Shown here piece by piece: positions 4,660-24,958 of a stretch of DNA of 25,764 nucleotides. The DNA comes from a virus. The first letter of the stretch is position 1. Each line of letters begins with the position of its first letter. The stretch lies in UHGV virus genome UHGV-0116607, one strand, 5' to 3'. The notes beneath the pieces are model-generated. The model did not search any database. It was not told where the DNA came from and saw only the letters and a list, made by a program, of their open reading frames with translations. Position numbers and translations under genes: made by a program.

Positions 4660-6078
4660 ATGAACGAAGACGATTTCGAAATCGGCAGCTGCTCTCCAGA
4701 GTTGATGGCATTGCTGGACAGCGACGATATTCAGCCTGGTTCCTCGGCTGGGTATCAGGCCTGCAAGACGATTTATCTCTTCCACCCCCTGGGCGGAAAG
4801 ATGGTGGATCGCCCGATTAAAATGGCGATGAATGAGCCGCGCACCGTGCATGTTGCCCAGTCGTACGGCCTTGAGCAGCGCCTGCGCGACGCGTTCGAGC
4901 GCGAATGGAAAGAGATGGGTGCGAACCAGCACATCGCCAACGCCGCGCGCATAGCCCGTATTTACGGCGTATCAGCGATCGCAATGCTGGTGGATAACCA
5001 GGAGCCGAATGAATCGCTGGACTACCGCACGCTGTACAAGCACAACGTCAGCTTTAACATTCTCGATCCGTTGAATACCGCGGGCAGTATCGTGCTGAAC
5101 CAGGACCCAAACGCCCATGACTTCCAGAAAGTCGAAGGCATTCGTGTGGCTGGCAAGCCATACCACAAATCGCGATGCATAGTCGCGCAGAACGAAGATC
5201 CTATTTATCTCGCGTACAACCCTGCGGCGTTCGGGTTCACCGGACGCAGTGTGTATCAGCGTGCGCTTTTCCCGCTGAAATCCTTTATTCAGACCATGCG
5301 CACTGATGACATGGTTGCGGTTAAAGGCGGACTGCTAATTACCAAAATTGCAGGCGCTGGCGCGGTTGTTAACAAAGTTATGCAGGCGCTGGGTGGATTC
5401 AAGCGCATGCTGCTGAAGCGGGGTAAAACTGGTGAGGTCCTGCAGATTGGACCGCAGGATGGTATCGAGTCAATCGATCTGAGTAATCTGGAAAAACCTC
5501 TCGACTCTGCGCGTAAGCATATTCTGGAGAACATAGCCGCCGCCGCCGACATGCCAGCGATCATCCTCAACTCTGAGACGTTCGCCCAGGGCTTCGGTGA
5601 AGGCACTGAAGATGCCCGTGCCGTAGCGGTGTACATCGACAATATCCGCGAGTGGCTGGACCCGCTTTACGCGTTCTTCATCCGCGTGTGCCAGTACCGC
5701 GCCTGGAGTATTGAGTTCTTCCAGTCTCTGCGTGCCGACCTCCCGGAGCTGAAAAACACCTACAGCGTTTATTTCGCGAGCTGGATAAACAACTTCGAAT
5801 ATCGCTGGCCGTCCTCCCTGAAAGAGCCGGAAAGCGAGAAGGTGAAGGTCGACGAGACGCGCTTTAAGGCGATCGTCAGCATGCTGGAAGTGGTGCTGCC
5901 GCAGCTCACGGCTGACCCGGAAAACCGCGCGACGCTTATCGAATGGGCGTGCGAAAACGCCAACGCCAACGAGAACCTCTTCCCCCAGCGGCTTAATCTT
6001 GATTACGACTCGCTGAAGGAAAACCCACCGCCGGAGCCGCCGAAAGCTGAAGAGCCAGGCGGCGGGATGATGCTATGA
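4660..6078 (+). CDS. Portal protein (putative)
   Basis: 472 aa; position immediately after the large terminase; size typical of portal proteins; no motif-level confirmation possible by eye. Confidence 0.5.
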   Translation: MNEDDFEIGSCSPELMALLDSDDIQPGSSAGYQACKTIYLFHPLGGKMVDRPIKMAMNEPRTVHVAQSYGLEQRLRDAFEREWKEMGANQHIANAARIARIYGVSAIAMLVDNQEPNESLDYRTLYKHNVSFNILDPLNTAGSIVLNQDPNAHDFQKVEGIRVAGKPYHKSRCIVAQNEDPIYLAYNPAAFGFTGRSVYQRALFPLKSFIQTMRTDDMVAVKGGLLITKIAGAGAVVNKVMQALGGFKRMLLKRGKTGEVLQIGPQDGIESIDLSNLEKPLDSARKHILENIAAAADMPAIILNSETFAQGFGEGTEDARAVAVYIDNIREWLDPLYAFFIRVCQYRAWSIEFFQSLRADLPELKNTYSVYFASWINNFEYRWPSSLKEPESEKVKVDETRFKAIVSMLEVVLPQLTADPENRATLIEWACENANANENLFPQRLNLDYDSLKENPPPEPPKAEEPGGGMML

Positions 6079-6899
6079 ACACTTTCACCCGAACAGTGAG
6101 AGACGCGGTGAAGTTCTTTCTCCGCAATGGCTACTCATCCCGGGAAGAGCTGGAACGCTGGCAGGCGATTATCCGCCAGGCGGCCGAAAGCGAAACCTCC
6201 GATGACTACATGGCGATGGTCACCCGCAACCTGACGAAAGCTTACGACCTGCAGGTTGGTCGCGCTGGCGCGCTGAAGCGCCACCAGGGCATATCCCGGT
6301 TTACGCTCAACTACCTTGAGCCGAAGCTGAGGACGGAACTCGACAGGCGGATCCTCGCCAGCGCTGACCTAATCCAGCTCAATCGCAAAAAAGCCATCGA
6401 CACTACGTTGTCGCGGTTTAGCGGCTGGGCCAGCAGCATTCCCTCAGCCGACAGCATTGCGCTGACCGGCATTCAGGGAACGATGCGGGAGACGGCAGCG
6501 CACATTCAGAAGGCCGCCGAGAAGGTGGACTATGAAGCGCGCCGGGTGATGATCGACCAGAACCATAAGCTGATAGCCAACATCGACAACGTGATCGCAA
6601 CGAGCAATAACGCGATTGCAGCGATATGGCACAGCCACTGGCGGCGGCCGGGTTATGACTTCCGGGAAGACCACAAGGAACGCGATCAGCTGTATTACCT
6701 GATTCGCGGGAACTGGGCGCAAAAAAACGGGTACGTGAAAGCAGGTCCTGCCGGCTACCTGGACGAAATCACTCAGCCAGGCGAAGAGGTTTTTTGCCAG
6801 TGCTACGTGACATACATCTACAACCTCCGAAGCATTCCTGAATACATGCTGACCCAGAAGGGGCAGAAGTTCATGGAGTCGATGAAGAAAGCAGCATAG
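6075..6899 (+). CDS. Head morphogenesis protein (MuF / SPP1 gp7-like, putative)
   Basis: 274 aa; ATGA start/stop overlap with the portal gene; conserved position downstream of portal. Confidence 0.4.
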   Translation: MNTFTRTVRDAVKFFLRNGYSSREELERWQAIIRQAAESETSDDYMAMVTRNLTKAYDLQVGRAGALKRHQGISRFTLNYLEPKLRTELDRRILASADLIQLNRKKAIDTTLSRFSGWASSIPSADSIALTGIQGTMRETAAHIQKAAEKVDYEARRVMIDQNHKLIANIDNVIATSNNAIAAIWHSHWRRPGYDFREDHKERDQLYYLIRGNWAQKNGYVKAGPAGYLDEITQPGEEVFCQCYVTYIYNLRSIPEYMLTQKGQKFMESMKKAA

Positions 6900-8546: not shown

Positions 8547-9407
8547 ATGGCTAACTTATCTCTTAACCCGATGGCAACCACGAATGCGCTTGGCTCCTTC
8601 GGTGTGCAGTCCGACGGTTATATTCAGGGTGTGGCGCTGGATGACCCGGCCAACCGCTTTAACCTGGCGGCGGGTACCGTGGCGGCAACGGAAACCAAAC
8701 CACTGTGGGGCGGTCTGCCAGTTGCTGAGCTTCTGCCCGGCACCAGCTCAAGCCCGCGCGGTTCTTATATTCGTCGCGCTGTGTCTGTTGCCGAGCTGGA
8801 GGGCTTCACAGTCTTCAATCAGGCTCACAACGGCCTGACCACTCCGCAGTCTCCGGTCCCGCTGTACGCCTCCGGCATGAGCGTTTCGTACTACCGCCTG
8901 GGTTCTAACATGCGCGTTCCGCTGAAAGCTTCTGCGCAGGTTGTCGCGCTGGGCACTTCCGGCGCGTCGGTTAAAACGCCGCTGGCCTGGGATTTCGTGA
9001 ACAACCAGATTACCACCGCGGCGGCGGCCGGTTTCGCCGGTTCTGATATTGCGACAACCGCTGTGACCTATGCCAATGGTGTGGCGACAGCGGTAACCGC
9101 TTCAGCTCATGGCCTGACTGCTGGTCAGTACGTGAAAATCAGCGGCGTCGCTCCTGCTGCGTACAACGGCACTGTGGTCGTACTGTCAGTCGTTAACGCA
9201 ACAACCTTTACCTATGCACCGGCAACTGCACCGAGCGGCGCTGCAACCACGCAGGGCACCGTTGGCGCAGTTACGCTTTCCGACATCACGCTGCCGGTAA
9301 AAGTGCTCGCTATCGAATCAGGCAACTCCAAGACTGTCAGCTATGACAGCGCGACGGGCTTCCTGACCTGGAATAACACCGACAGCTGCGCGCTGGTCTT
9401 ACTTTAA
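8547..9407 (+). CDS. Head structural protein with C-terminal Ig-like domain (decoration/capsid accessory protein, putative)
   Basis: 286 aa; AGCTC-rich upstream region; C-terminal domain …HGLTAGQYVKISGVAPAAYNGTVVVLSVVNATTFTYAP… shared with the sheath and J-like proteins in this window. Confidence 0.4.
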   Translation: MANLSLNPMATTNALGSFGVQSDGYIQGVALDDPANRFNLAAGTVAATETKPLWGGLPVAELLPGTSSSPRGSYIRRAVSVAELEGFTVFNQAHNGLTTPQSPVPLYASGMSVSYYRLGSNMRVPLKASAQVVALGTSGASVKTPLAWDFVNNQITTAAAAGFAGSDIATTAVTYANGVATAVTASAHGLTAGQYVKISGVAPAAYNGTVVVLSVVNATTFTYAPATAPSGAATTQGTVGAVTLSDITLPVKVLAIESGNSKTVSYDSATGFLTWNNTDSCALVLL

Positions 9408-9423: not shown

Positions 9424-10455
9424 ATGGCTGCAATTACCCCCAGCTACACCATCGTCAATCCGTCGTACATCGCGCCGGAAATGATCCTCGGTTACCAGCA
9501 GGCATCAGGTGCGTTTGAAACCATCGCCAGCGGTAACCCGCAAGTCCGTCTCGGCGTAGGCGACCAGTACGTCTACATGCGCCGCCTGGATATTCGCACC
9601 CAGACCACTTCCAGCCAGTCCGGTAACGGTAACCAGCTGCCGAGCGTGGCGCTGGATGCGAAGATGATTTCAACCCCAACCTACCTGTTCCGCTGCCGTG
9701 GTATCTACGATCACCATGACATGGCGGCTGCCGGTAACTGGAACTTTGCACTGCCGGAAGCCCAGCGTCTGGGTATGCGTCAGGGCATCTTCCAGCAACT
9801 GCGCTCTGCTCTGCTGTATGGCATGAACCCTGCTGGTGGTGAAGGCCTGCTGAACACCGCTGGCGCGACTACCGAGTCCCTGCCTCCTGACAGCAACAGC
9901 AACACCACCGTGCTAACCTATGACCACGGGCAGATGGCGGTATATCTTCTGGGCCACGTGCAGGCAGCACTGACCCGCACCATGCAGCTGGGTCGCCAGC
10001 AGCGTGTTGTTATCCTGGGGCCGCAGCGCGTCCTCGGTGCCATGGAGATTCAGCAGATCGTTCAGCTGACTTCTTACCAGCGTCCTGGTGGTGGTACTGA
10101 CACCGTCGGCGGCACGGTGAAAGAAGTGCTGAAAGGCGCAAACGTCCAGGTTGACTGGGTGTATGACGATACCTTGATCGGCGCTGGTGCTGGCGGTACC
10201 GATGCGGTGGTGATCACCATCCCTGAGGTCGAAGTGCCGATGGTCAACTCTACCGTGAACACCAACGAATTCGCCAAGCTGACCCCGTCTCTTGCCGCGA
10301 ACGCGCTGATGTTTACCGACATGGCCGCGCCGCGCGAAATCCCGACGCCGATCGCTGGTGGCGCCATCGATGTTCTGTCCGAAATGCGTTCAACCGCAGG
10401 CTGGGCAGTTCGTCCGGAAGCAATCACCATCCTGTCCATGGCGTACAGCGCCTGA
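9424..10455 (+). CDS. Major capsid protein (putative)
   Basis: 343 aa; position after scaffold-like genes; followed immediately by an intrinsic terminator-like hairpin, a common arrangement after highly expressed capsid genes. Confidence 0.5.
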   Translation: MAAITPSYTIVNPSYIAPEMILGYQQASGAFETIASGNPQVRLGVGDQYVYMRRLDIRTQTTSSQSGNGNQLPSVALDAKMISTPTYLFRCRGIYDHHDMAAAGNWNFALPEAQRLGMRQGIFQQLRSALLYGMNPAGGEGLLNTAGATTESLPPDSNSNTTVLTYDHGQMAVYLLGHVQAALTRTMQLGRQQRVVILGPQRVLGAMEIQQIVQLTSYQRPGGGTDTVGGTVKEVLKGANVQVDWVYDDTLIGAGAGGTDAVVITIPEVEVPMVNSTVNTNEFAKLTPSLAANALMFTDMAAPREIPTPIAGGAIDVLSEMRSTAGWAVRPEAITILSMAYSA

Positions 10456-12791: not shown

Positions 12792-14186
12792 ATGGCAATT
12801 GTTAACATTAACGTATCGGTGACCAATCCGCCGAAGCCCTCGCAGCTGCTTAAATCCGGCGCGATGATCTCCATGGGCGGGACGACTCTGGCGGCAGGCG
12901 AATATCAGTTGCTTACGTCAAAAGACGATCTGAAAGCTATCACCGCCCCGGGGAAAACGATATCAACCATTGTCTGGGCGGCCAATCTGGTCACTGTTAC
13001 CCTCGCATCGCCTCATGGCTGGACGAATGGCAGCACCGTGCCTGTTGTGATTTCTGGCGTGGCACCTGCGGCATACAACCGCTCTGCTGAGGCGACGGTT
13101 ACCAGCGCGACGGAATTTACTTATTCGCTGAGCAGCGACCCGGGGACGGCAACCACCATGGGCGTTGTTAAGACGGTTGTTGCTGGTGAAATTATCCAGA
13201 TGAACACCACGTACTGGGCGCAGGGTGCAGCTCGCGCGGTCTATGTGCTGGAACTTGGTGACATCACCATCCCGGCAGCCGTGGCAGCTCTGAGTGATTT
13301 TATCGACAAGGATATTTCCCTCGGCAACACGTACCAGAAATTCTTTTCGTATCTGGTACCTCGTGAGTGGGATTCTGAAGCGACTTTCAAAACGCTCACG
13401 GGTCAGTACACATCCCCCGGATCGCTGGTTTATTTCTTTGTCACAAGCACGATTGCCACCTATCAGTCATGGGTGACAACAAAGAATAAAACCGTATTTG
13501 CAGGGGTCGAAGCTCCGAATATTCCAGCTACTGAATTTTCGATGGCGGCAGCGTTCCAGTCCTCGCTGTCAAATGACCCCGGTTCGTCGAACATGGTACC
13601 GCCGATGGCGTTCCGCTTCATGTATGGGGTGACTGAATACCCGGTTGAGAACAACGGTACGTTGCTGAAAACGCTCCAGGAAAACCACGTCAACTACATC
13701 GGGTCATCTGCAGAAGGCGGCCTGAGCAACAAGATGCTGGTAGCCGGCCACATGCTTGACGGTAATCCGTTTAACTACTGGTATGCAGTAGCATGGGCCG
13801 CTATTAACCTTGAACTGGACCTGGCTAACGAAGTGATCAACGGGTCTAACACCACAACCAACCCACTGTATTACGACCAGAACGGTATTGACCGCCTGCA
13901 AAACCGCGCACTGAAAACGCTGCGTAATGGAATTAGCTATGGGCTGATTCTGGGCCGCGTTATCGGTACAAAACTTATTCAGTCCGATTTCAACACCGAA
14001 TACGAGAAAGGTTCTTACGCGGGTAATGCTGTTATCAACGCAGTGCCTTTTGCTAACTATTCCAGCCTGAATCCTTCGGATTACAAGGAGGGTAAGTACA
14101 ACGGGCTAGGTGCTGTTATCACGCCGCGCCGTGGCTTCGAGTCCATCACGTTTAACCTGAACGTTACCAATTTTGTAGGGGCATAA
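12792..14186 (+). CDS. Tail sheath protein (putative) with N-terminal Ig-like insertion
   Basis: 464 aa; followed directly by a 145-aa tube-like gene, chaperone pair and tape measure (canonical contractile-tail order); carries the shared …ISGVAPAAYN…FTY… domain. Confidence 0.5.
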   Translation: MAIVNINVSVTNPPKPSQLLKSGAMISMGGTTLAAGEYQLLTSKDDLKAITAPGKTISTIVWAANLVTVTLASPHGWTNGSTVPVVISGVAPAAYNRSAEATVTSATEFTYSLSSDPGTATTMGVVKTVVAGEIIQMNTTYWAQGAARAVYVLELGDITIPAAVAALSDFIDKDISLGNTYQKFFSYLVPREWDSEATFKTLTGQYTSPGSLVYFFVTSTIATYQSWVTTKNKTVFAGVEAPNIPATEFSMAAAFQSSLSNDPGSSNMVPPMAFRFMYGVTEYPVENNGTLLKTLQENHVNYIGSSAEGGLSNKMLVAGHMLDGNPFNYWYAVAWAAINLELDLANEVINGSNTTTNPLYYDQNGIDRLQNRALKTLRNGISYGLILGRVIGTKLIQSDFNTEYEKGSYAGNAVINAVPFANYSSLNPSDYKEGKYNGLGAVITPRRGFESITFNLNVTNFVGA

Positions 14187-17153: not shown

Positions 17154-17863
17154 TGGGGTTCACTCGTGAGATGTACAAGCTGGGGTTTGAAATATCCCCG
17201 GTTATCCTTTGTGACGGCATTGCCCAGGCAATACCAGGTGGCATGCTTCCGATCGTTGCCCTGACCCAAAGCGCCAGTTTTGTAACTGGTCTTTTGGGTG
17301 GCGCAATTAACCTCACCGATCTGGATAAATATTTTTGCCACTGGAAACCAGTTCAGGGCTCAACGCTTATTGATTACGACATTGCCCGCTACCCTTTTGC
17401 TAACCAGGTCGTGGCCGCCAATGCGTTACTGGCTCAACCTTTGCGCGTATCCCTGATTATGGAAGCGCCGGTGAATGAGAATACCGGAGCAATGACTAAG
17501 TTAGTAACGATCAGCGCACTACAGTCAGTTCTCCAGGCCCATGCCAGTCTCGGTGGAACATTCATCGTTGCCACACCGTCAGTTATCTATAACCGATGCA
17601 TATTGCGCACCGTGAAGGACATCACAGGCGGCAACGATGCGTTACCGCAACGGACGTGGATGTGGGACTTCGAACAGCCGCTGATTACCTTAACTGGTGC
17701 GGAGAAGGCAGTTAATAACTTCCTGAATAAGATTGGCGCTGGAGACGTGGTAACCGAGCCAGCATGGACAAACACGGTCAATGCTCTGGGCAACACCTCT
17801 CTTGGTGGTTCTGTTTCAGAGGCTATAACGGGCCTTCTTGGCAAACTTGGAATAGGCGCATGA
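17153..17863 (+). CDS. Baseplate/tail protein of unknown function
   Basis: 236 aa; start overlaps the tape measure stop (TAATG); position. Confidence 0.4.
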   Translation: MGFTREMYKLGFEISPVILCDGIAQAIPGGMLPIVALTQSASFVTGLLGGAINLTDLDKYFCHWKPVQGSTLIDYDIARYPFANQVVAANALLAQPLRVSLIMEAPVNENTGAMTKLVTISALQSVLQAHASLGGTFIVATPSVIYNRCILRTVKDITGGNDALPQRTWMWDFEQPLITLTGAEKAVNNFLNKIGAGDVVTEPAWTNTVNALGNTSLGGSVSEAITGLLGKLGIGA

Positions 17864-18135
17864 CAACTCAATATTTCCCATTCTCAGGTAATGAGCGTCA
17901 AAGCATAGCTTTTACGCCTGTTCTTGATGGTGCAGTTTATAACTGCCAGATTAAATGGAATATTGCCGCTCAGCGCTGGTATTTGTTTATTACTGATAAT
18001 TCAGAAAATGCAATTATTAACACAGCCTTGGTCGGATCGCCTGCCGCTGGTGGTATTAATCTCATCTCTGGTGTATTCAGATTCACAACTATGTACTGGC
18101 GGGAAAAGAACGGGCAAATTGAGGTAATAAGTTAA
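17860..18135 (+). CDS. Small baseplate-associated protein (hypothetical)
   Basis: 91 aa from ATG 17860 (ATGA overlap); AT-rich; the ORF track's 17764 start would overlap the upstream gene. Confidence 0.35.
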   Translation: MTTQYFPFSGNERQSIAFTPVLDGAVYNCQIKWNIAAQRWYLFITDNSENAIINTALVGSPAAGGINLISGVFRFTTMYWREKNGQIEVIS

Positions 18136-19154
18136 TGCGTTATTACGATATACAGATTTTCGATCCGTCAAAAGACGGAAAATCTGATGTGTTATTGAAG
18201 CAATATAGCAGCCACAAAAATGGAGCTTATAATCCCGGCGCATTAATGATTGAGTTTGACATTCTCAGGTTTGGTGAATCAACCCCACAGGGTGAAACGC
18301 ACCTGACTATATGGGGTATTGGACCGAAAGAAATGCAGCAGGCCAGACAGGACCTTTTCGGTAAAAGAATAAAAATCTTTCTCGGTATGAAGCAAGGTCT
18401 ACCACTAGCTGGGAACTTCAAAGCGCCAGGACTGGTGCTTGATGGTACGATTAATCAGGTTTTTGGTAACTGGCAGGGTACGGATTTAAGGCTGGATTTT
18501 GTGATTGTAACTGGTCCAGTAACGTTAAACCCTGATGAGAAACCAGCACCACTGCCGTTAACGTTTGACTGGAAAGTTGGGCAAAAATTATCTGTCGCCT
18601 TAACTAACTGCTTCCAGTTGATAGGCGGTTATACATTTAATATTAATATTAGTGATCGGCTGGTTCTTAATCATTACAGAGGGCTGTTTTGTCGCGATAT
18701 AGTTTCTCTGGCAAAGGACCTTAATGCCTTTTCTCGCTCATGGATTAAGGACTCAGGTTACACTGGTGTTGAAATGGCCATAGTTAACGGCAATCAAATT
18801 CGAGTCTGGGATAATGATGTCAATTACCATCCTGAAGGTTCAGAAGTTACAAGTATAACCGAGTTGAATTTTACTGATTTAATCGGTCAGCCGACATGGG
18901 TAGCCTTTAAAACCATTAGCCTGATGTGTGTTATGCGCAGTGATATTCAGGTTGGTGACCATATAAGCATGCCTAAAAAAACCGCCCCAGTAATAAGAGC
19001 CTCTTCATATTCTCAGTATCGGGATGATTCCGCTTTTACAGGTGAGTTTGTTGTTAGTTCAGTGCGTCTTATTGGTAATAGTCGGCAGCCAACTGCCGAT
19101 GCATGGGTAACAATTATTGAGGCATATCCATTTGTTAAGGCTGGTGGTAAATGA
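18135..19154 (+). CDS. Baseplate hub-like protein (hypothetical)
   Basis: 339 aa; TAATG overlap with the upstream gene; AT-rich relative to neighbours; located just upstream of the spike gene. Confidence 0.35.
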   Translation: MRYYDIQIFDPSKDGKSDVLLKQYSSHKNGAYNPGALMIEFDILRFGESTPQGETHLTIWGIGPKEMQQARQDLFGKRIKIFLGMKQGLPLAGNFKAPGLVLDGTINQVFGNWQGTDLRLDFVIVTGPVTLNPDEKPAPLPLTFDWKVGQKLSVALTNCFQLIGGYTFNINISDRLVLNHYRGLFCRDIVSLAKDLNAFSRSWIKDSGYTGVEMAIVNGNQIRVWDNDVNYHPEGSEVTSITELNFTDLIGQPTWVAFKTISLMCVMRSDIQVGDHISMPKKTAPVIRASSYSQYRDDSAFTGEFVVSSVRLIGNSRQPTADAWVTIIEAYPFVKAGGK

Positions 19155-19867
19155 GTATCGATCAAAAGCTTAATTTCGGCAGCAGCATGAATCGTTTTGC
19201 TGAAATAAAGGTCGAAGATGCCCTGCAAAAGGCGGGTAAGGTGCTTCCGGCCAGCGTGGTCAAACAGGACGGAAACATGATCACGGTGGCCTTTGAGTTG
19301 CGCGATATCCCTTATGTGCTTCCTCAGGTCACCGTTCCGTTATTTGGTCCGCAGTATATCCGCTATCCCATGCAGCCAGGCGACAAAGGCATTGTTATCC
19401 CGGCAGATACCTACCTTGGTGGTGTTAGCGGGCAGGGTGGCGGCATTGCTGACCTGACGCCGCCGGCGAACCTTAGCGCGCTGGTATTTTTGCCAATCAG
19501 TAATACAGAGTGGGAAGGCGTCGACGGTCAGGTTGTGACCATTTACGGGCCCGAAGGTGTCACCATTCGGGATGCTGGCAGCAACACAACGTTTTTACTT
19601 ACTCCTGACAGCATAACCATCGCCACTCCAACGCAGTTCAAAGTGACCGTAGGGTCAACAGTTTTCACACTTACGGACGGTATGTGGAATCTGACTGGTC
19701 AGGCAGGGAAGTTGCAGGACGGAACAGCCAGCACAAGCCCGGCGATCATGCACGAGGGCTGGAAGTCGCTTGTTTCCTGGTGCAACAGCCATGTTCACTC
19801 CAACGGAAACGGCGGCAGCAATACCGGGAACGCGACAATGCAATTTAACGGGAATATCACTGAATGA
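19151..19867 (+). CDS. Baseplate central spike protein (gpV-like, putative)
   Basis: 238 aa; ATGA overlap; Gly-rich beta-type sequence; C-terminal HVH motif (NSHVHSNGNGG) resembling metal-binding HxH spike tips; followed by W-, J- and I-like genes. Confidence 0.45.
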   Translation: MSIDQKLNFGSSMNRFAEIKVEDALQKAGKVLPASVVKQDGNMITVAFELRDIPYVLPQVTVPLFGPQYIRYPMQPGDKGIVIPADTYLGGVSGQGGGIADLTPPANLSALVFLPISNTEWEGVDGQVVTIYGPEGVTIRDAGSNTTFLLTPDSITIATPTQFKVTVGSTVFTLTDGMWNLTGQAGKLQDGTASTSPAIMHEGWKSLVSWCNSHVHSNGNGGSNTGNATMQFNGNITE

Positions 19868-20196
19868 GAACCTACGGCAGGAATTCAGATGGTAAGTGGA
19901 CTCTGGTCGAAACAGATGAGAATGGATTCAACGACGCGGTTTACCTGACTACTCTGGTGCAAAATCTTAAGCTTGCGCCGCAGGAGTCTCCGTTCTTCGC
20001 GAACAATGGTATTCCGGCTAACGGATCAGTAATACAGCAGGTATTGCCGACGTATTACGTTAACCGTCTGCAACAACAATTTAGTCCCTACTTTTCATCG
20101 CTACAAATTGCTTTGGTTAGTGATGATCCACCTGTTTATAACATTTCGGCGATAACCAACGCCGGTTCTAAAATTATCACAACGGTGAACGTATGA
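19864..20196 (+). CDS. Small baseplate wedge protein (gpW / gp25-like, putative)
   Basis: 110 aa; ATGA overlap; size and position between spike and J-like genes. Confidence 0.4.
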   Translation: MRTYGRNSDGKWTLVETDENGFNDAVYLTTLVQNLKLAPQESPFFANNGIPANGSVIQQVLPTYYVNRLQQQFSPYFSSLQIALVSDDPPVYNISAITNAGSKIITTVNV

Positions 20197-21611
20197 GTGA
20201 TTTGTCCGTTAGCTATGACGCAGCCGGGCCAGTGCCGAAAACATCCGAAGAGCTGCGCGCCGACTTAGTTTCAAGAGCCACAGAATTATCACCAGGCATC
20301 ACTACGGACCTCCCCGGATCACTTATCGAGGATATCGTCGGTACCGATGTTGGCGCGCTACTCATTGCCGATCAGATTCGTGTCGACCTCATCAACTCCG
20401 TAGGCCCGCTGAAAGCCAATATGTACATGCTGAACCTTCTGGCCCAGCAGTCAGGTATCAGCGAACAAAAAACTCAGGGGGCGACAACTGTACCTGTCGT
20501 GTTTGAGGGCCCGGTCGGCTTCGTAGTGTCACAGGGGTTTCTGGTCAGCGATGGCACGTATACCTACCAGATCGCCGATGCGACAGTGGTGCTGTCTTCC
20601 GGTGTCAGTTCGATGGTAACAGCCATTGCAACAAACACTGGTTCGTGGGCTGTACCGGTAGGATCGGTTAATCAGATACTGACCAGCCTGCCGTCTGGCA
20701 TTACTCTGACCTGCACCAACCCGGTTGCTGGCACCCCAGGTGGTGCGCCTGAAACTAACTTCGAATTTCGCGAGCGCGTCTGGGAAGCTCAGATGTCGAC
20801 TGTTCAGGGATATCCAGGCTTTATCCGCCAGAAATTGACAGACCTGAGTAATGTCCAGGCTCGTCTGGTTTCCGTTGTTCAGAGCGGTAATGCCTGGATT
20901 GTTATGTGTGGCGGCGGCGATATCTATGAGATGGCCGGGGCCATTTATAAGTCAGCCGGCGACATCAGCAGGCTAAAAGGGACTGACCTGAACGTCACCG
21001 GGATCACCAATGCGAACCCAGGAGTAGTAACGACCGACATCACGCACGGATTCAGCTCTGGCCAGGTAATTAATATCGCAGGTGTTACCGGCATGAGCGG
21101 GATTAATAACGTCCCTCTCACTATAACCGTGTTAAGTCCACATACTTTCTCAATAGGCATCAATACCACCTCGTCAGGCGCATGGACTGGTGGTGGAATA
21201 GTTACGCCGAACCTGAGGAATAATGTGGTTACGGTCAACGACTGGCCAGATAACTACCTGATACCGTTTGTTATACCATTTCAGCAACTGGTGACTATCA
21301 AGTTTCAGTGGGCAACCGAAAGCGCGAACTACCTGACAGACGCGACAATAGCCTCTCTGGTGACGCAACCGGTAATCAATTATGTAAACGGGATATTCGC
21401 AGGAAAGCCGATGAATATAAATAACGTCAAAGATGTCTTTCTTCAGGCGATTAACAGCACGCTCGATATGAGCCTGATTTCGACACTGAACGTTATTGTT
21501 ACGGTGAATGGTGTAATCACAGGAGTGGATGCCGGAACTAACATTATCAGCGGCGACCCTTACAGTTACTGGTTCATTGCCTCTGACGGGGTTATCGTGG
21601 ACGGGATATAA
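20193..21611 (+). CDS. Baseplate J-like protein with Ig-like insertion (putative)
   Basis: 472 aa; ATGA overlap; position in V-W-J-I order; contains the shared …HGFSSGQVINIAGVTGMSGINN…TFSIG… domain. Confidence 0.45.
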   Translation: MSDLSVSYDAAGPVPKTSEELRADLVSRATELSPGITTDLPGSLIEDIVGTDVGALLIADQIRVDLINSVGPLKANMYMLNLLAQQSGISEQKTQGATTVPVVFEGPVGFVVSQGFLVSDGTYTYQIADATVVLSSGVSSMVTAIATNTGSWAVPVGSVNQILTSLPSGITLTCTNPVAGTPGGAPETNFEFRERVWEAQMSTVQGYPGFIRQKLTDLSNVQARLVSVVQSGNAWIVMCGGGDIYEMAGAIYKSAGDISRLKGTDLNVTGITNANPGVVTTDITHGFSSGQVINIAGVTGMSGINNVPLTITVLSPHTFSIGINTTSSGAWTGGGIVTPNLRNNVVTVNDWPDNYLIPFVIPFQQLVTIKFQWATESANYLTDATIASLVTQPVINYVNGIFAGKPMNINNVKDVFLQAINSTLDMSLISTLNVIVTVNGVITGVDAGTNIISGDPYSYWFIASDGVIVDGI

Positions 21612-21612
21612 T

Positions 21613-22317
21613 ATGCTTGAAGATATCATTAAGTCTTACTTGTATACGCAGTATAACGACGATGATGATCTCCAGGCGTTCGTCACTGCGTATAACTCCA
21701 TGGCCCAGGAAATTTATTCATGGATGATTAACGCCAACCTTCCGATATTTGTCGGAGGGTATAATGCTGGTGACCAGTTAAAATGGATTGCCCGCGGGAT
21801 TTATGGCGTTAAGCCGCCGGTGCTGGTCAGTGGGAAGCGAACCGTTTACGGCCCTTACAACGCCGTCCTGTTCAACCAGTTACCATTCAATGGCAGAAAG
21901 GTAGTTAATCAGTCAGAGCAGGTTGTCGTTTCAGATGATCTTTTTAAGCGCATCATGACGTGGAATTTCTACAAAGGTGATGGGTATTACTTTACCATCC
22001 CATGGTTAAAGCGTCGGATAATGAGATTTCTTACCGGGGTTGATGGCGTTGACGTCGTTAACGATCAGAGGTGGAGTATTTCGGTTCTTTTTTCTGATTC
22101 TGGAGCGAGCATATCGATCATCAAAGGGTACAGGAAACTCACCGATGCCTCCATGTTCAATAACTTTTCCTACAATTCACAGACGCTTAATCAGAAGAAA
22201 AGCCTTCTGATAAAAAGTACGAACTACGAATATGCATCATTGTTCAAACAGGCCTTTGATAGCGGCCTGCTTCATATGCCATTTTATCAGCCTGTTACCG
22301 TAACCATTATCGGCTAG
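21613..22317 (+). CDS. Baseplate / tail-fibre-proximal protein (gpI-like, putative)
   Basis: About 234 aa from ATG 21613 (one nt after the upstream TAA); the ORF track's longer 21529 start would overlap the J-like gene by 83 nt. Confidence 0.4.
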   Translation: MLEDIIKSYLYTQYNDDDDLQAFVTAYNSMAQEIYSWMINANLPIFVGGYNAGDQLKWIARGIYGVKPPVLVSGKRTVYGPYNAVLFNQLPFNGRKVVNQSEQVVVSDDLFKRIMTWNFYKGDGYYFTIPWLKRRIMRFLTGVDGVDVVNDQRWSISVLFSDSGASISIIKGYRKLTDASMFNNFSYNSQTLNQKKSLLIKSTNYEYASLFKQAFDSGLLHMPFYQPVTVTIIG

Positions 22318-22555
22318 AGTTATCCCGGCGATCTATTGCCATGTCAGTGTAATACTTAAGACACTGGCATATAACAAGCAACATGATAATGGTAAAGAAC
22401 AGAGCGGCGCTGAACTTTATATTTTCAAATGGTGGGATTCCTTCCTGAATCCACATGTTGAAGATTAAAGCAATAAGGAAAGCCGAAAGCAAAATTGTTA
22501 TTGCGCTAACTGATGATAAAAGAAATTTTGTAATAGCAACTGACAGATTATTCAT
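22307..22555 (-). CDS. Small hydrophobic membrane protein (82 aa, two predicted transmembrane helices), opposite-strand accessory gene
   Basis: Only clear minus-strand gene outside the invertible segment; markedly AT-rich; GAGAGGG ribosome-binding site before ATG; hydrophobic stretches LLSSVSAITILLSAFLIALIF and ALFFTIIMLLVICQCL; extended -10-like TGgTAAAAT about 30 nt upstream on the minus strand. Confidence 0.5.
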   Translation of the reverse strand: MNNLSVAITKFLLSSVSAITILLSAFLIALIFNMWIQEGIPPFENIKFSAALFFTIIMLLVICQCLKYYTDMAIDRRDNSSR

Positions 22556-22583
22556 TCTGAAGCCCTCTCTAAAGTTTAATTAA

Positions 22584-22592
22584 TTTTACCAC
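22584..22592 (-). promoter_or_regulatory. Extended -10 promoter element (TGgTAAAAT) for the small membrane-protein gene
   Basis: Minus-strand TGGTAAAAT, about 30 nt upstream of the ATG at 22555; no good -35 hexamer, consistent with an extended -10 promoter. Confidence 0.3.
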
Positions 22593-22597
22593 TAAGA

Positions 22598-22621
22598 ACC
22601 CGCCTTGAGCGGGTTTTTTGT
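22598..22621 (+). terminator. Intrinsic terminator immediately upstream of the tail fibre gene
   Basis: ACCCGC-CTTGA-GCGGGT hairpin followed by TTTTTTGTT; about 20 nt before the tail fibre ribosome-binding site (GGAGGA). Confidence 0.55.
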
Positions 22622-22642
22622 TGCCCAAATCCCGGAGGATAA

Positions 22643-23593
22643 ATGGCACTCACACTTTTAGCTGCCAACAATGCGCAGACTGTGCTGGCGGCAGGAATTA
22701 GCGCATCAGCAACTTCTTTGACTGTTAACTCAGGAACCGGATCACTGTTTCCTGCGCCATCAGACGGAGTAAGTTTTTTTAAGTTAACCCTGATTGATGC
22801 GGCAACCGGGCAACTCACCGAAATCATGCATGTAACCGCGCGCACTGGTGACACCATGACGATCGAACGCGGCCAGGAGGGAACGACAGCCCGCGCATGG
22901 TCAGCGAATGATATCGCAGCAAACATGATGACCGCCGGCACTCTTAACTACATCCTGGACAATTTTCAACCCTTAGATGCAACCCTAACGGCATTGGCTG
23001 GGCTGGCAACCGGTGCAAATAAACTCCCGTATTTCACTGGAACTGATACAGCTGCGCAGACTGATTTAACTTCTGTTGGCCGTGACATTATTGGGAAAAA
23101 TACTATTGCTGACATTCTCACATACCTTGGTTTGGGAGAAGGTTCGGCATTACCCGTTGGTGTGCCTGTCCCGTGGCCTTCCGCCACTCCGCCAACAGGC
23201 TGGCTGAAATGCAACGGGGCTGCTTTTTCGGCTGAAGAATACCCGGAACTGGCAAAGGCTTACCCGACAAATAAATTGCCTGATTTACGCGGTGAATTTA
23301 TTCGTGGCTGGGATGACGGACGTGGTGTGGATGCCGGGCGACAATTATTATCTTCACAGGGGGATGCAATAAGAAATATTGAGGGATTCGCAGATGGCGG
23401 GATCGGCATGTCTTTTGATGCAATCAGAGGGGCTTTTTACGATGCAGGAACACGATCAGCGACAATGGCGAATAACACAACTGCTATAGGCAAAACCGAT
23501 GACCTTGGATTCGACGCCTCTCGTGTCGTGCCAACAGCTAATGAAAACCGTCCACGTAACATCGCCTTTAATTATATTGTGAGGGCTGCATAA
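22643..23593 (+). CDS. Tail fibre protein (constant N-terminal part + invertible C-terminal variable part with tail-collar-like domain)
   Basis: 316 aa; GGAGGA ribosome-binding site; C-terminal region has the tail-fibre collar signature (…GWLKCNGAAFSAEEYPELAKAYP…LPDLRGEFIRGWDDGRG…); a hix/gix-like recombination site lies within the coding sequence at 23115-23140. Confidence 0.8.
   Translation: MALTLLAANNAQTVLAAGISASATSLTVNSGTGSLFPAPSDGVSFFKLTLIDAATGQLTEIMHVTARTGDTMTIERGQEGTTARAWSANDIAANMMTAGTLNYILDNFQPLDATLTALAGLATGANKLPYFTGTDTAAQTDLTSVGRDIIGKNTIADILTYLGLGEGSALPVGVPVPWPSATPPTGWLKCNGAAFSAEEYPELAKAYPTNKLPDLRGEFIRGWDDGRGVDAGRQLLSSQGDAIRNIEGFADGGIGMSFDAIRGAFYDAGTRSATMANNTTAIGKTDDLGFDASRVVPTANENRPRNIAFNYIVRAA
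23115..23140. repeat. Left recombination site (hix/gix-like 26-bp site) inside the tail fibre gene
   Basis: TTCTCACATACC-TT-GGTTTGGGAGAA: two 12-bp half-sites around a 2-bp core; 15 bp (23127-23141) is a perfect inverted copy of 24944-24958. Confidence 0.6.
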
Positions 23594-24599: not shown

Positions 24600-24958
24600 C
24601 TACCGTCCTATCGAAATATAACTGAATCTGTATTGCTGTGAGATATCACTGGTTGCCACACGCCACGCTGAATTACTGATATGTTCAAAATTTACAGACA
24701 AAACCTGCGGGGCAGGACTCGACGGGTCTGACTGAACGGCATCAGACATAACACTGACTGAAACCATCGGCTGATTAGGGAATGGTATAGGGAAGTGTCC
24801 ACTGATAAAGCGGGTCGTGTTTCCTGAAAAAGTGCCAAACTGAACAATATATCCACCTGGTAGCCTGAACCATCCCGAACCAGAAGCGAATGCTCCCATA
24901 TCCGGTATCTGATTATCTCCTGTGCCCACATCCCTTTTCGCCGCTTCTCCCAAACCAA
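24600..24958 (-). CDS. Promoterless alternative tail fibre C-terminal cassette (S'v-like), expressed only after inversion
   Basis: Minus-strand ORF in frame with the fibre constant region across the recombination site (…GLGE|AAKRDVGTGDNQIPDMGAFASGSGWFRLPGG…); stop 2 nt before the U'-like ATG; no start codon or ribosome-binding site of its own. Confidence 0.6.

Follow-up and report, generated by a model that had tools for sequence, protein, structure and literature searches.

Ig-like add-ons of phage virions include T4 Hoc and domains of the Big_2, I-set and FN3 types, and Ig-like accessory domains on phage virions were reportedly described by Fraser et al. in 2006. In siphovirus tail tubes a different small domain has been seen by cryo-EM: an N-terminal FCCH domain points outward from the tube, petal-like (PMC13576161), and serves within the same tail-tube family as an alternative to the Ig add-ons (PMC13576161). 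In these proteins (PF08813 family; NBD2 gp39, MED16 gp13 and the FCWL1 tail tube 9JLF_E) the domain is a terminal fusion and its host is the tube. FCCH stands for the 'first catalytic cysteine half-domain' of eukaryotic ubiquitin E1 (PF16190; 2V31/2LZJ, 4P22), which has the same fold and belongs to the same sequence family, and E1 enzymes combine it with adenylation (ThiF) and catalytic-cysteine domains. The barrel of the phage endosialidases (PF12195; K1F endoNF 1V0E/3GVK, phi92 4HIZ) likewise belongs to this fold and family and is a polysialic-acid binding site and a hotspot of host discrimination (PMC12632334). Searching the literature for the FCCH domain on a sheath, a baseplate J or a decoration protein, we came upon the tail-tube paper only, and on no description of it in any of these three. 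The locus described here differs from the tail-tube cases in that the hosts are a decoration protein, a sheath and a J-like protein, three at once, and in that two of the three copies are nested internally.

Results

Genome context of the locus

The window, by which we mean the whole 25.8 kb stretch of DNA that was analysed, is the late-gene block of a tailed phage, which reads from left to right on the + strand. It starts with holin, endolysin and spanin, followed by the small and large terminase, the portal and a head-morphogenesis protein; next come a NUDIX-protease fusion, a 286-aa protein, the major capsid protein and several small head/tail proteins, then the tail sheath, a presumed tube and a tape measure with a lytic transglycosylase domain. 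The end of the window is occupied by a baseplate hub, a baseplate J-like protein, a collar-domain tail fibre, fibre assembly genes and a DNA invertase (Table 1). The closest annotated relatives are the Klebsiella phages vB_Kpn_Chronis, RothC and RothD, the Yersinia vB_YenM_06.16-1 group and Pantoea phage PdC23, and the closest protein cluster, 97% identical, is from Salmonella enterica. The window thus belongs to a temperate enterobacterial myovirus of the Chronis/RothC-like kind, which most likely is a Salmonella prophage. The Yersinia relatives are temperate myoviruses whose contractile tails were seen by electron microscopy (PMC9224151), and Chronis and RothC/D have been put in a proposed new family by a preprint (10.1101/2024.12.02.626457).

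Table 1. Features of the window discussed in the text, with positions counted from its first letter.
Feature	Position	Strand	Family match or location
NUDIX-protease fusion protein, 539 aa	6912..8531	+	PF00293; phrog_530
Predicted decoration/cement protein, 286 aa	8547..9407	+	directly precedes the gene of the major capsid protein
Module copy 1, head type	9039..9287	+	aa 165-247 of the 286-aa protein, nested in a loop
Major capsid protein	9424..10455	+	phrog_6671, E = 4e-182; phrog_264 major head protein, E = 1.7e-7
Contractile tail sheath, 464 aa	12792..14186	+	phrog_205, E = 8.7e-47; in the tail-gene block
Module copy 2, sheath type	12951..13193	+	aa 54-134 of the sheath, near the N-terminus
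Tape-measure-like protein, 608 aa	15327..17153	+	phrog_873; phrog_7182
Baseplate J-like (wedge) protein, 472 aa	20193..21611	+	PF04865; phrog_6
Module copy 3, J type	20979..21221	+	aa 263-343 of the J-like protein, between its N- and C-terminal parts
ORF downstream of the J gene	21529..22317	+	phrog_8212
Gene of the probable invertible segment	22643..23593	+	
Inverted repeat, 15 nt	23127..23141		inside the tail-fibre gene
Gene of the probable invertible segment	23593..24186	+	
Gene of the probable invertible segment	24052..24597	-	
Gene of the probable invertible segment	24922..25578	+	
Inverted repeat, 15 nt	24944..24958		start of the DNA invertase gene

Several neighbouring genes showed features of their own. 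The 539-aa protein carries an N-terminal NUDIX hydrolase domain (PF00293, E = 1e-16, aa 9-112), a head-maturation-protease-like region (phrog_530, aa 159-384) and an acidic or coiled stretch; this fusion is also kept in Chronis gp4 and PdC23 gp04, its relatives are labelled variously 'NUDIX hydrolase', 'TolA protein' or 'glycosyl transferase', and a NUDIX domain on a prohead protease/scaffold is unusual. The major capsid protein matches PF09950 weakly, below the cut-off. In the tape-measure-like protein, a C-terminal lytic transglycosylase or endolysin-like region (aa ~456-586) matches phrog_873 (E = 6e-35) and phrog_7182 (E = 1e-18), which points to a cell-wall-degrading domain. The ORF downstream of the J gene overlaps its end by about 80 nt; its true start lies probably further downstream since the phrog_8212 match begins only at residue 28, and its PdC23 homologue is annotated DUF2612. 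Finally, a perfect 15-nt inverted repeat, TTGGTTTGGGAGAAG, is found inside the tail-fibre gene and at the start of the DNA invertase gene (phrog_125, E = 2e-75), the pair flanking two opposed tail-fibre-assembly genes; the repeat-flanked region is a probable Gin/Cin-type invertible host-range segment.

Three virion proteins carry a homologous module

The first-pass annotation of this DNA had noticed a motif shared by the head protein, the sheath and the J-like protein, and had attributed it to a domain of roughly 60 residues. The motif is borne out, the three segments lie inside real ORFs and they represent a homologous domain in three otherwise unrelated virion proteins, as seen by BLASTP, profile search and hhalign; its length is ~81-83 aa instead of ~60, and the sheath segment, which had been placed at 12965-13175, was in the right region with its limits 2 nt out of frame. 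By BLASTP, the head and sheath copies are 44% identical over 85 aa (E = 1e-9) and the head and J copies 35% over 79 aa (E = 1e-6), the match between sheath and J copies alone being weak. A profile made from the three copies, run against the six-frame translation of the window, gave exactly three matches (E 1e-33 to 1e-38) with the next best at E = 0.33, and the head+sheath-type profile aligned to the J-type profile with an hhalign probability of 92% (E = 6e-7, 72 columns). Pairwise and profile alignments thus support homology.

A, T, V and G are abundant in the modules, and ten residues, ISGVAPAAYN, are common to the head and sheath copies, so that a compositional artefact (Ala/Thr/Val/Gly-rich sequence), or else a recent in-genome duplication or gene conversion, had to be weighed. 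Composition-preserving shuffles never reached the observed score for head/sheath (z = 13.3) or head/J (z = 10.7), with 0 of 2000 in either case, and the similarity is therefore more than Ala/Thr/Val-rich low complexity; for sheath/J, z was 3.5 and 13 of 2000 shuffles reached the observed score. The independent fold prediction described below agrees. As for duplication, the copies are 36-52% identical at the DNA level, synonymous sites are saturated, third codon positions are randomised even within identical residues, and the shared ten residues are written with different codons in each gene. Besides, the copies of seven phages group by host protein. The likelihood left to an artefact or to recent copying is in our view practically nil, and recent duplication or gene conversion is ruled out by DNA identity and codon usage.

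The module is an FCCH-type barrel

The module had been taken for an Ig-like domain, an assignment that did not hold. No Ig family (Big_2, I-set, FN3) was found at E <= 1 when the three full proteins were searched against Pfam, and the J copy instead matches PF16190 E1_FCCH with 54.5 bits for a cut-off of 29.5 (E = 1.3e-14, profile positions 2-67 of 70). In agreement with this, the J copy retrieves the FCCH of UBA1/UBA6 among PDB sequences (phmmer, E = 1e-7) and is 43-46% identical over 70 aa to metazoan UBA1 FCCH (PDB 2LZJ/4P22/9QGG). The head copy reaches 15.7-18.1 bits with E1_FCCH in Pfam, under the 29.5 cut-off, and its sub-threshold matches, End_beta_barrel (the endosialidase barrel) and E1_FCCH, span nearly the whole profile; the sheath copy has no Pfam match at all. 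Since a profile of the head and sheath copies only retrieved nothing relevant among PDB sequences (best E ~1, a lytic transglycosylase), the fold of the head copy was tested directly by structure prediction. The AF2 model of the head copy alone (pLDDT 88.2, pTM 0.78) has six strands forming a closed antiparallel barrel that is superposable on a solved FCCH domain, and Foldseek ranked endoNF, UBA1 and UBA6 top, with no immunoglobulin fold in the structure-search lists. The head and sheath copies would thus join the FCCH family through their homology to the J copy and this one AF2 model.

For an Ig-like beta-sandwich of the Big_2 / I-set type we observed noise-level matches only (Invasin_D3, E = 0.031, in 2 of 9 module sequences), and given the J copy above the E1_FCCH cut-off we consider such a sandwich hardly credible; it is ruled out by the Pfam results together with the fold comparison of the head-copy model. 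The fold assignment is corrected accordingly, from Ig to an FCCH-type barrel. The module resembles the Ig add-ons in being a small autonomous beta domain on several structural proteins that is dispensable for assembly and for which weak carbohydrate adhesion is proposed, and it differs from them in being a closed six-stranded barrel (FCCH) and not a two-sheet sandwich (Ig). That the three hosts all carry an FCCH-type six-stranded closed beta-barrel, with the insertion history described below, we regard as very likely.

The kinship with E1 concerns the barrel. According to Pfam the three phage proteins have neither the adenylation nor the catalytic-cysteine domain of E1 enzymes: the J protein shows FCCH and Baseplate_J only, the other two nothing E1-like, and the phage module is a stand-alone insert in virion proteins with the head and sheath copies under the Pfam cut-off. 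A 138-aa Klebsiella baseplate-J fragment is labelled 'ubiquitin-activating enzyme E1' and lacks the E1 catalytic domains, so that the label is an over-annotation. With the endosialidase barrel the module scores 20.3 bits for a cut-off of 35, and the module hosts are without sialidase beta-propeller or stalk. PdC23 pdc_05 (5303-6175) and the vB_YenM_06.16-1 homologue of the 286-aa protein are labelled 'endosialidase' and lack the catalytic domains; because propeller and stalk are missing, this name is a misnomer. The presence of the barrel thus accounts for misleading database entries, in which the decoration protein goes under 'endosialidase' and baseplate fragments go under 'ubiquitin-activating enzyme E1'.

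The family is broad. The module profile retrieved 11,283 representative clusters at E <= 1e-3, the best cluster matches being giant proteins with up to 19 tandem copies; 38 of 46 sampled carriers were recognised as Pfam E1_FCCH, with Phage_tail_3, Baseplate_J, DUF2460 and NosD as co-occurring domains. Among PHROG families, the module matched those of tail fibre, major tail and large virion structural proteins, to name some. When a protein database was searched with the module profile, 20 proteins came up, all short and most of them fragments, and NCBI names some relatives 'ubiquitin-activating E1 FCCH domain-containing protein'. In the present case, an extensive accessory-domain family that had been catalogued before turns up together in three additional host proteins. 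The J copy is 24-26% identical to the other two copies of its own genome, below its identity to UBA1 FCCH, which raises the question of a shared origin; speculatively, on the strength of these identities, the FCCH of eukaryotic E1 and the phage virion domain may have a comparatively recent common origin by horizontal transfer.

The hosts are a predicted decoration protein, the sheath and a baseplate J-like protein

The view that the three hosts are virion proteins held for each of them: a capsid-associated protein, a sheath (phrog_205) and a Baseplate_J protein (PF04865, above cut-off). By sequence, the host portion of the 286-aa protein resembles nothing in Pfam or PDB. Its full-length model, built from a 100-sequence alignment (pLDDT 87.0, pTM 0.80), matches outside the barrel solved capsid decoration/cement proteins, with the FCWL1 decoration protein on top (13.5; 136 of 142 residues), followed by Pam3 cement (11.8), BB1 decorator (10.1), HFTV1 capsid stabilisation protein (10.0), TW1 capsid-stabilising protein (9.6), XM1 minor capsid protein (9.3), E217 gp24 (9.3) and Sf11 gp40 (8.4). 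These fold matches, and a gene lying directly upstream of the major capsid gene, identify the 'head protein' by its predicted structure as a decoration/cement protein, one of whose loops holds the barrel. The solved proteins of this class (FCWL1 gp29, Pam3, TW1, XM1, E217 gp24) have 136-211 aa and no insert, whereas the 286-aa protein carries a ~83-aa FCCH barrel in a loop and its sequence similarity to them is undetectable.

Alignment with insert-free orthologues revealed conserved host sequence on both sides of the ~83-aa insertion. The insert-free decoration protein was compared with 120 diverse homologues, of which 110 have 190-203 aa; eight beta-proteobacterial ones reach 286-293 aa and hold, at this loop, a divergent version of the module (hhalign 92.6%, E = 4e-7). 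These divergent inserts were missed by the module HMM and by Pfam and were linked to the module by profile-profile comparison only. Insertion into this loop was thus either recurrent or ancient.

The sheath has no Pfam match and no PDB sequence match; it is recognised as a contractile tail sheath by its family match, and relatives have a contractile tail. The J-like protein matches PF04865 Baseplate_J with 26.6 bits (cut-off 21.1, E = 4.3e-6) and phrog_6, baseplate wedge subunit, with E = 2e-22. In one viral contig, whose sheath is 99% identical to that of the window, the J gene is present as two ORFs (17470-18177 and 19199-20242) separated by ~1 kb, and ~10 J residues are repeated where the gene is split, which suggests an insertion element or a homing-type insertion.

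Each site has its own history of gain or loss

Relatives without the insertion were found for all three proteins. In the following, presence (+) and absence (-) are given in the order decoration protein, sheath, J. The state +++ is that of the window itself and of 61 loci (57 viral contigs plus Chronis, YenM_29.18 and PdC23, the latter with two records); ++- is seen in nine close relatives with an intact module-free J; -+-, with a divergent sheath copy, in Rac-SA53 and Apl-pPE4; and --+ in Shewanella QDWS. These four states imply that each site has its own gain or loss history. The survey of viral contigs covered close relatives (sheath identity 77-99%), and it bears on fixation within the clade and not on deep history.

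In the sheath, Rac-SA53 and Apl-pPE4 have their divergent copy at the same site as the window, and the QDWS sheath has no module. Because the automatic alignment of window and QDWS sheaths was misled by two different insertions, the proteins were aligned after removal of the module, and they are then colinear. The other insertion is in the QDWS sheath (21343-22662) at about aa 120-200, where ~75 aa with two 'GSGYTxAPTVxFS' repeats follow an LVPxxWD motif; such a different insert at a different site indicates that the sheath lineage accepts different accessory domains at different sites. In the J-like protein, the copy is a clean ~64-aa indel when compared to Rac-SA53 rac63 and to the module-free J of the nine close relatives. 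Concerning the QDWS record itself, Shewanella phage vB_Sb_QDWS (OK094664) and 'Hujiaoplasma phage zrk29-1' (OP650936) are both 47,902 bp long and give identical matches, and the QDWS decoration protein has a match of 100% identity under the label 'MULTISPECIES Pseudomonadota' and is 94-96% identical to proteins from Burkholderia. Either the hosts given in the records could be incorrect, or the phage may come from a Burkholderia-like strain, as its contaminant or prophage.

All three copies are of ancient origin and have been passed on together with the genes that hold them. In the seven phages the head type is nearest to the sheath type (32-40% identity), and the head copy may derive from the sheath copy. 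The description of the three as paralogous copies is loosely true, provided that it is not understood as recent duplication within this genome, given DNA identities of 36-52% and the grouping by host protein.

We also compared the evolution of each module with that of its scaffold in 54-77 close relatives, where dS is saturated and ratios are accordingly rough. The dN of the capsid module is ~2.0x that of its scaffold (52 of 54 comparisons) and the dN of the sheath module ~2.5x (77 of 77), while the J module is slightly slower than its scaffold (0.86x). All three copies have dN/dS of 0.02-0.12, that is, purifying selection, and we observed no overall signal of diversifying selection on the module in this set and no frameshifted or decayed copy in the 61 loci with all three. 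The modules are thus maintained by selection and are not decaying.

Discussion

Taken as a whole, the data are explained best by surface barrels on capsid, sheath and baseplate that make up a low-affinity, multivalent polysaccharide-binding layer, an explanation that we hold on balance to be probable. The barrel sits in a permissive loop or N-terminal region of each host and leaves the assembly scaffold undisturbed, and insertion of this kind explains how orthologues with and without barrel can coexist. Extra sheath domains are generally known to lie on the outside. It is likely that the barrels stand out from the exterior of capsid, sheath and baseplate, by analogy with the tail-tube precedent, with exterior decoration proteins and with the general architecture of sheath and wedge. 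There would be several hundred of them per virion as an order of magnitude, a rough estimate, not a computed one, that takes a T=7-sized capsid, a tape measure of ~600 aa and 6-12 J subunits. They would bind host-surface polysaccharide (capsule, O-antigen) weakly and multivalently, keeping the virion near the cell, and the layer would be a non-Ig counterpart of Hoc-type or Ig-type decoration. We propose glycan adhesion as the likeliest function, if only tentatively: the endosialidase barrel, the closest relative characterised within a phage structural protein, binds polysialic acid and tunes host discrimination (PMC12632334), and the capsid and sheath copies outpace their scaffolds.

The barrels might have a structural role instead, binding no ligand but strengthening the capsid lattice, the extended sheath and the baseplate periphery through additional contacts between subunits. 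We regard this as possible but doubtful, and nearly as likely as glycan adhesion. Copy 1 is hosted by a protein of the cement or capsid-stabilising class, and extra sheath domains in other myoviruses often mediate contacts between neighbours. Against adhesion stands that FCCH in E1 enzymes is known to contact protein (ubiquitin) and not sugar. The invariant positions of the module are glycines and one asparagine, which look structural, and none is singled out as ligand-binding. Strong purifying selection in all copies also argues for contacts, and the lack of a diversifying signal, together with the stronger conservation of the J copy relative to its scaffold, is no less compatible with a structural contact than with adhesion. 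Yet all three proteins have working module-free orthologues (Rac-SA53, Apl-pPE4, QDWS; the J of nine close relatives), and since these occur in isolated phages, the barrel is shown to be dispensable for assembly. Capsid and sheath copies that evolve 2-2.5 times faster than their scaffolds are moreover unusual for an interface and as expected for exposed, non-assembly surfaces, and on tail tubes the domain stands outward like a petal (PMC13576161).

Likewise, the barrels could be promiscuous passengers that do nothing specific here and persist mainly because they fold by themselves and permissive loops tolerate them, as would agree with a mosaic presence and absence at every site, with other inserts taken by the same loops or proteins (the ~75 aa of the QDWS sheath) and with the very large and varied distribution of the domain. 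This we consider improbable, because purifying selection is strong (dN/dS 0.02-0.12 in all copies), no frameshifted or decayed copy occurs in the 61 loci with all three, and retention has been long and vertical within each host-protein lineage.

Returning to the polysaccharide-binding layer, the first-pass annotation had suggested that the whole virion surface displays a shared add-on; the architecture supports an add-on common to capsid, sheath and baseplate, and display over the whole surface, like carbohydrate adhesion, is suggested by analogy. A stronger form would be that in these temperate enterobacterial myoviruses several hundred FCCH barrels cover capsid, sheath and baseplate together and act as one multivalent glycan-adhesion layer, similar to Hoc and to 'adherence to mucus', which at present we consider rather unlikely. 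If it were true, the natural +++, ++-, -+- and --+ phages would form a series for measuring the share of each layer in adsorption. The practical value is modest, although the presence/absence series would allow direct tests of the function of accessory domains, and the permissive sites with their insert-free orthologues mark places for the display of foreign domains on capsid, sheath or baseplate. For phages of the Chronis/RothC/YenM/PdC23 type, the 286-aa protein, so far unannotated, can now be assigned from its model as a probable decoration/cement protein with a nested domain. Altogether, the FCCH barrel, documented so far on siphovirus tail tubes, extends to decoration protein, sheath and baseplate, sometimes all in one virion, a genuine if fairly unremarkable example of a common surface module that phages put to use again.
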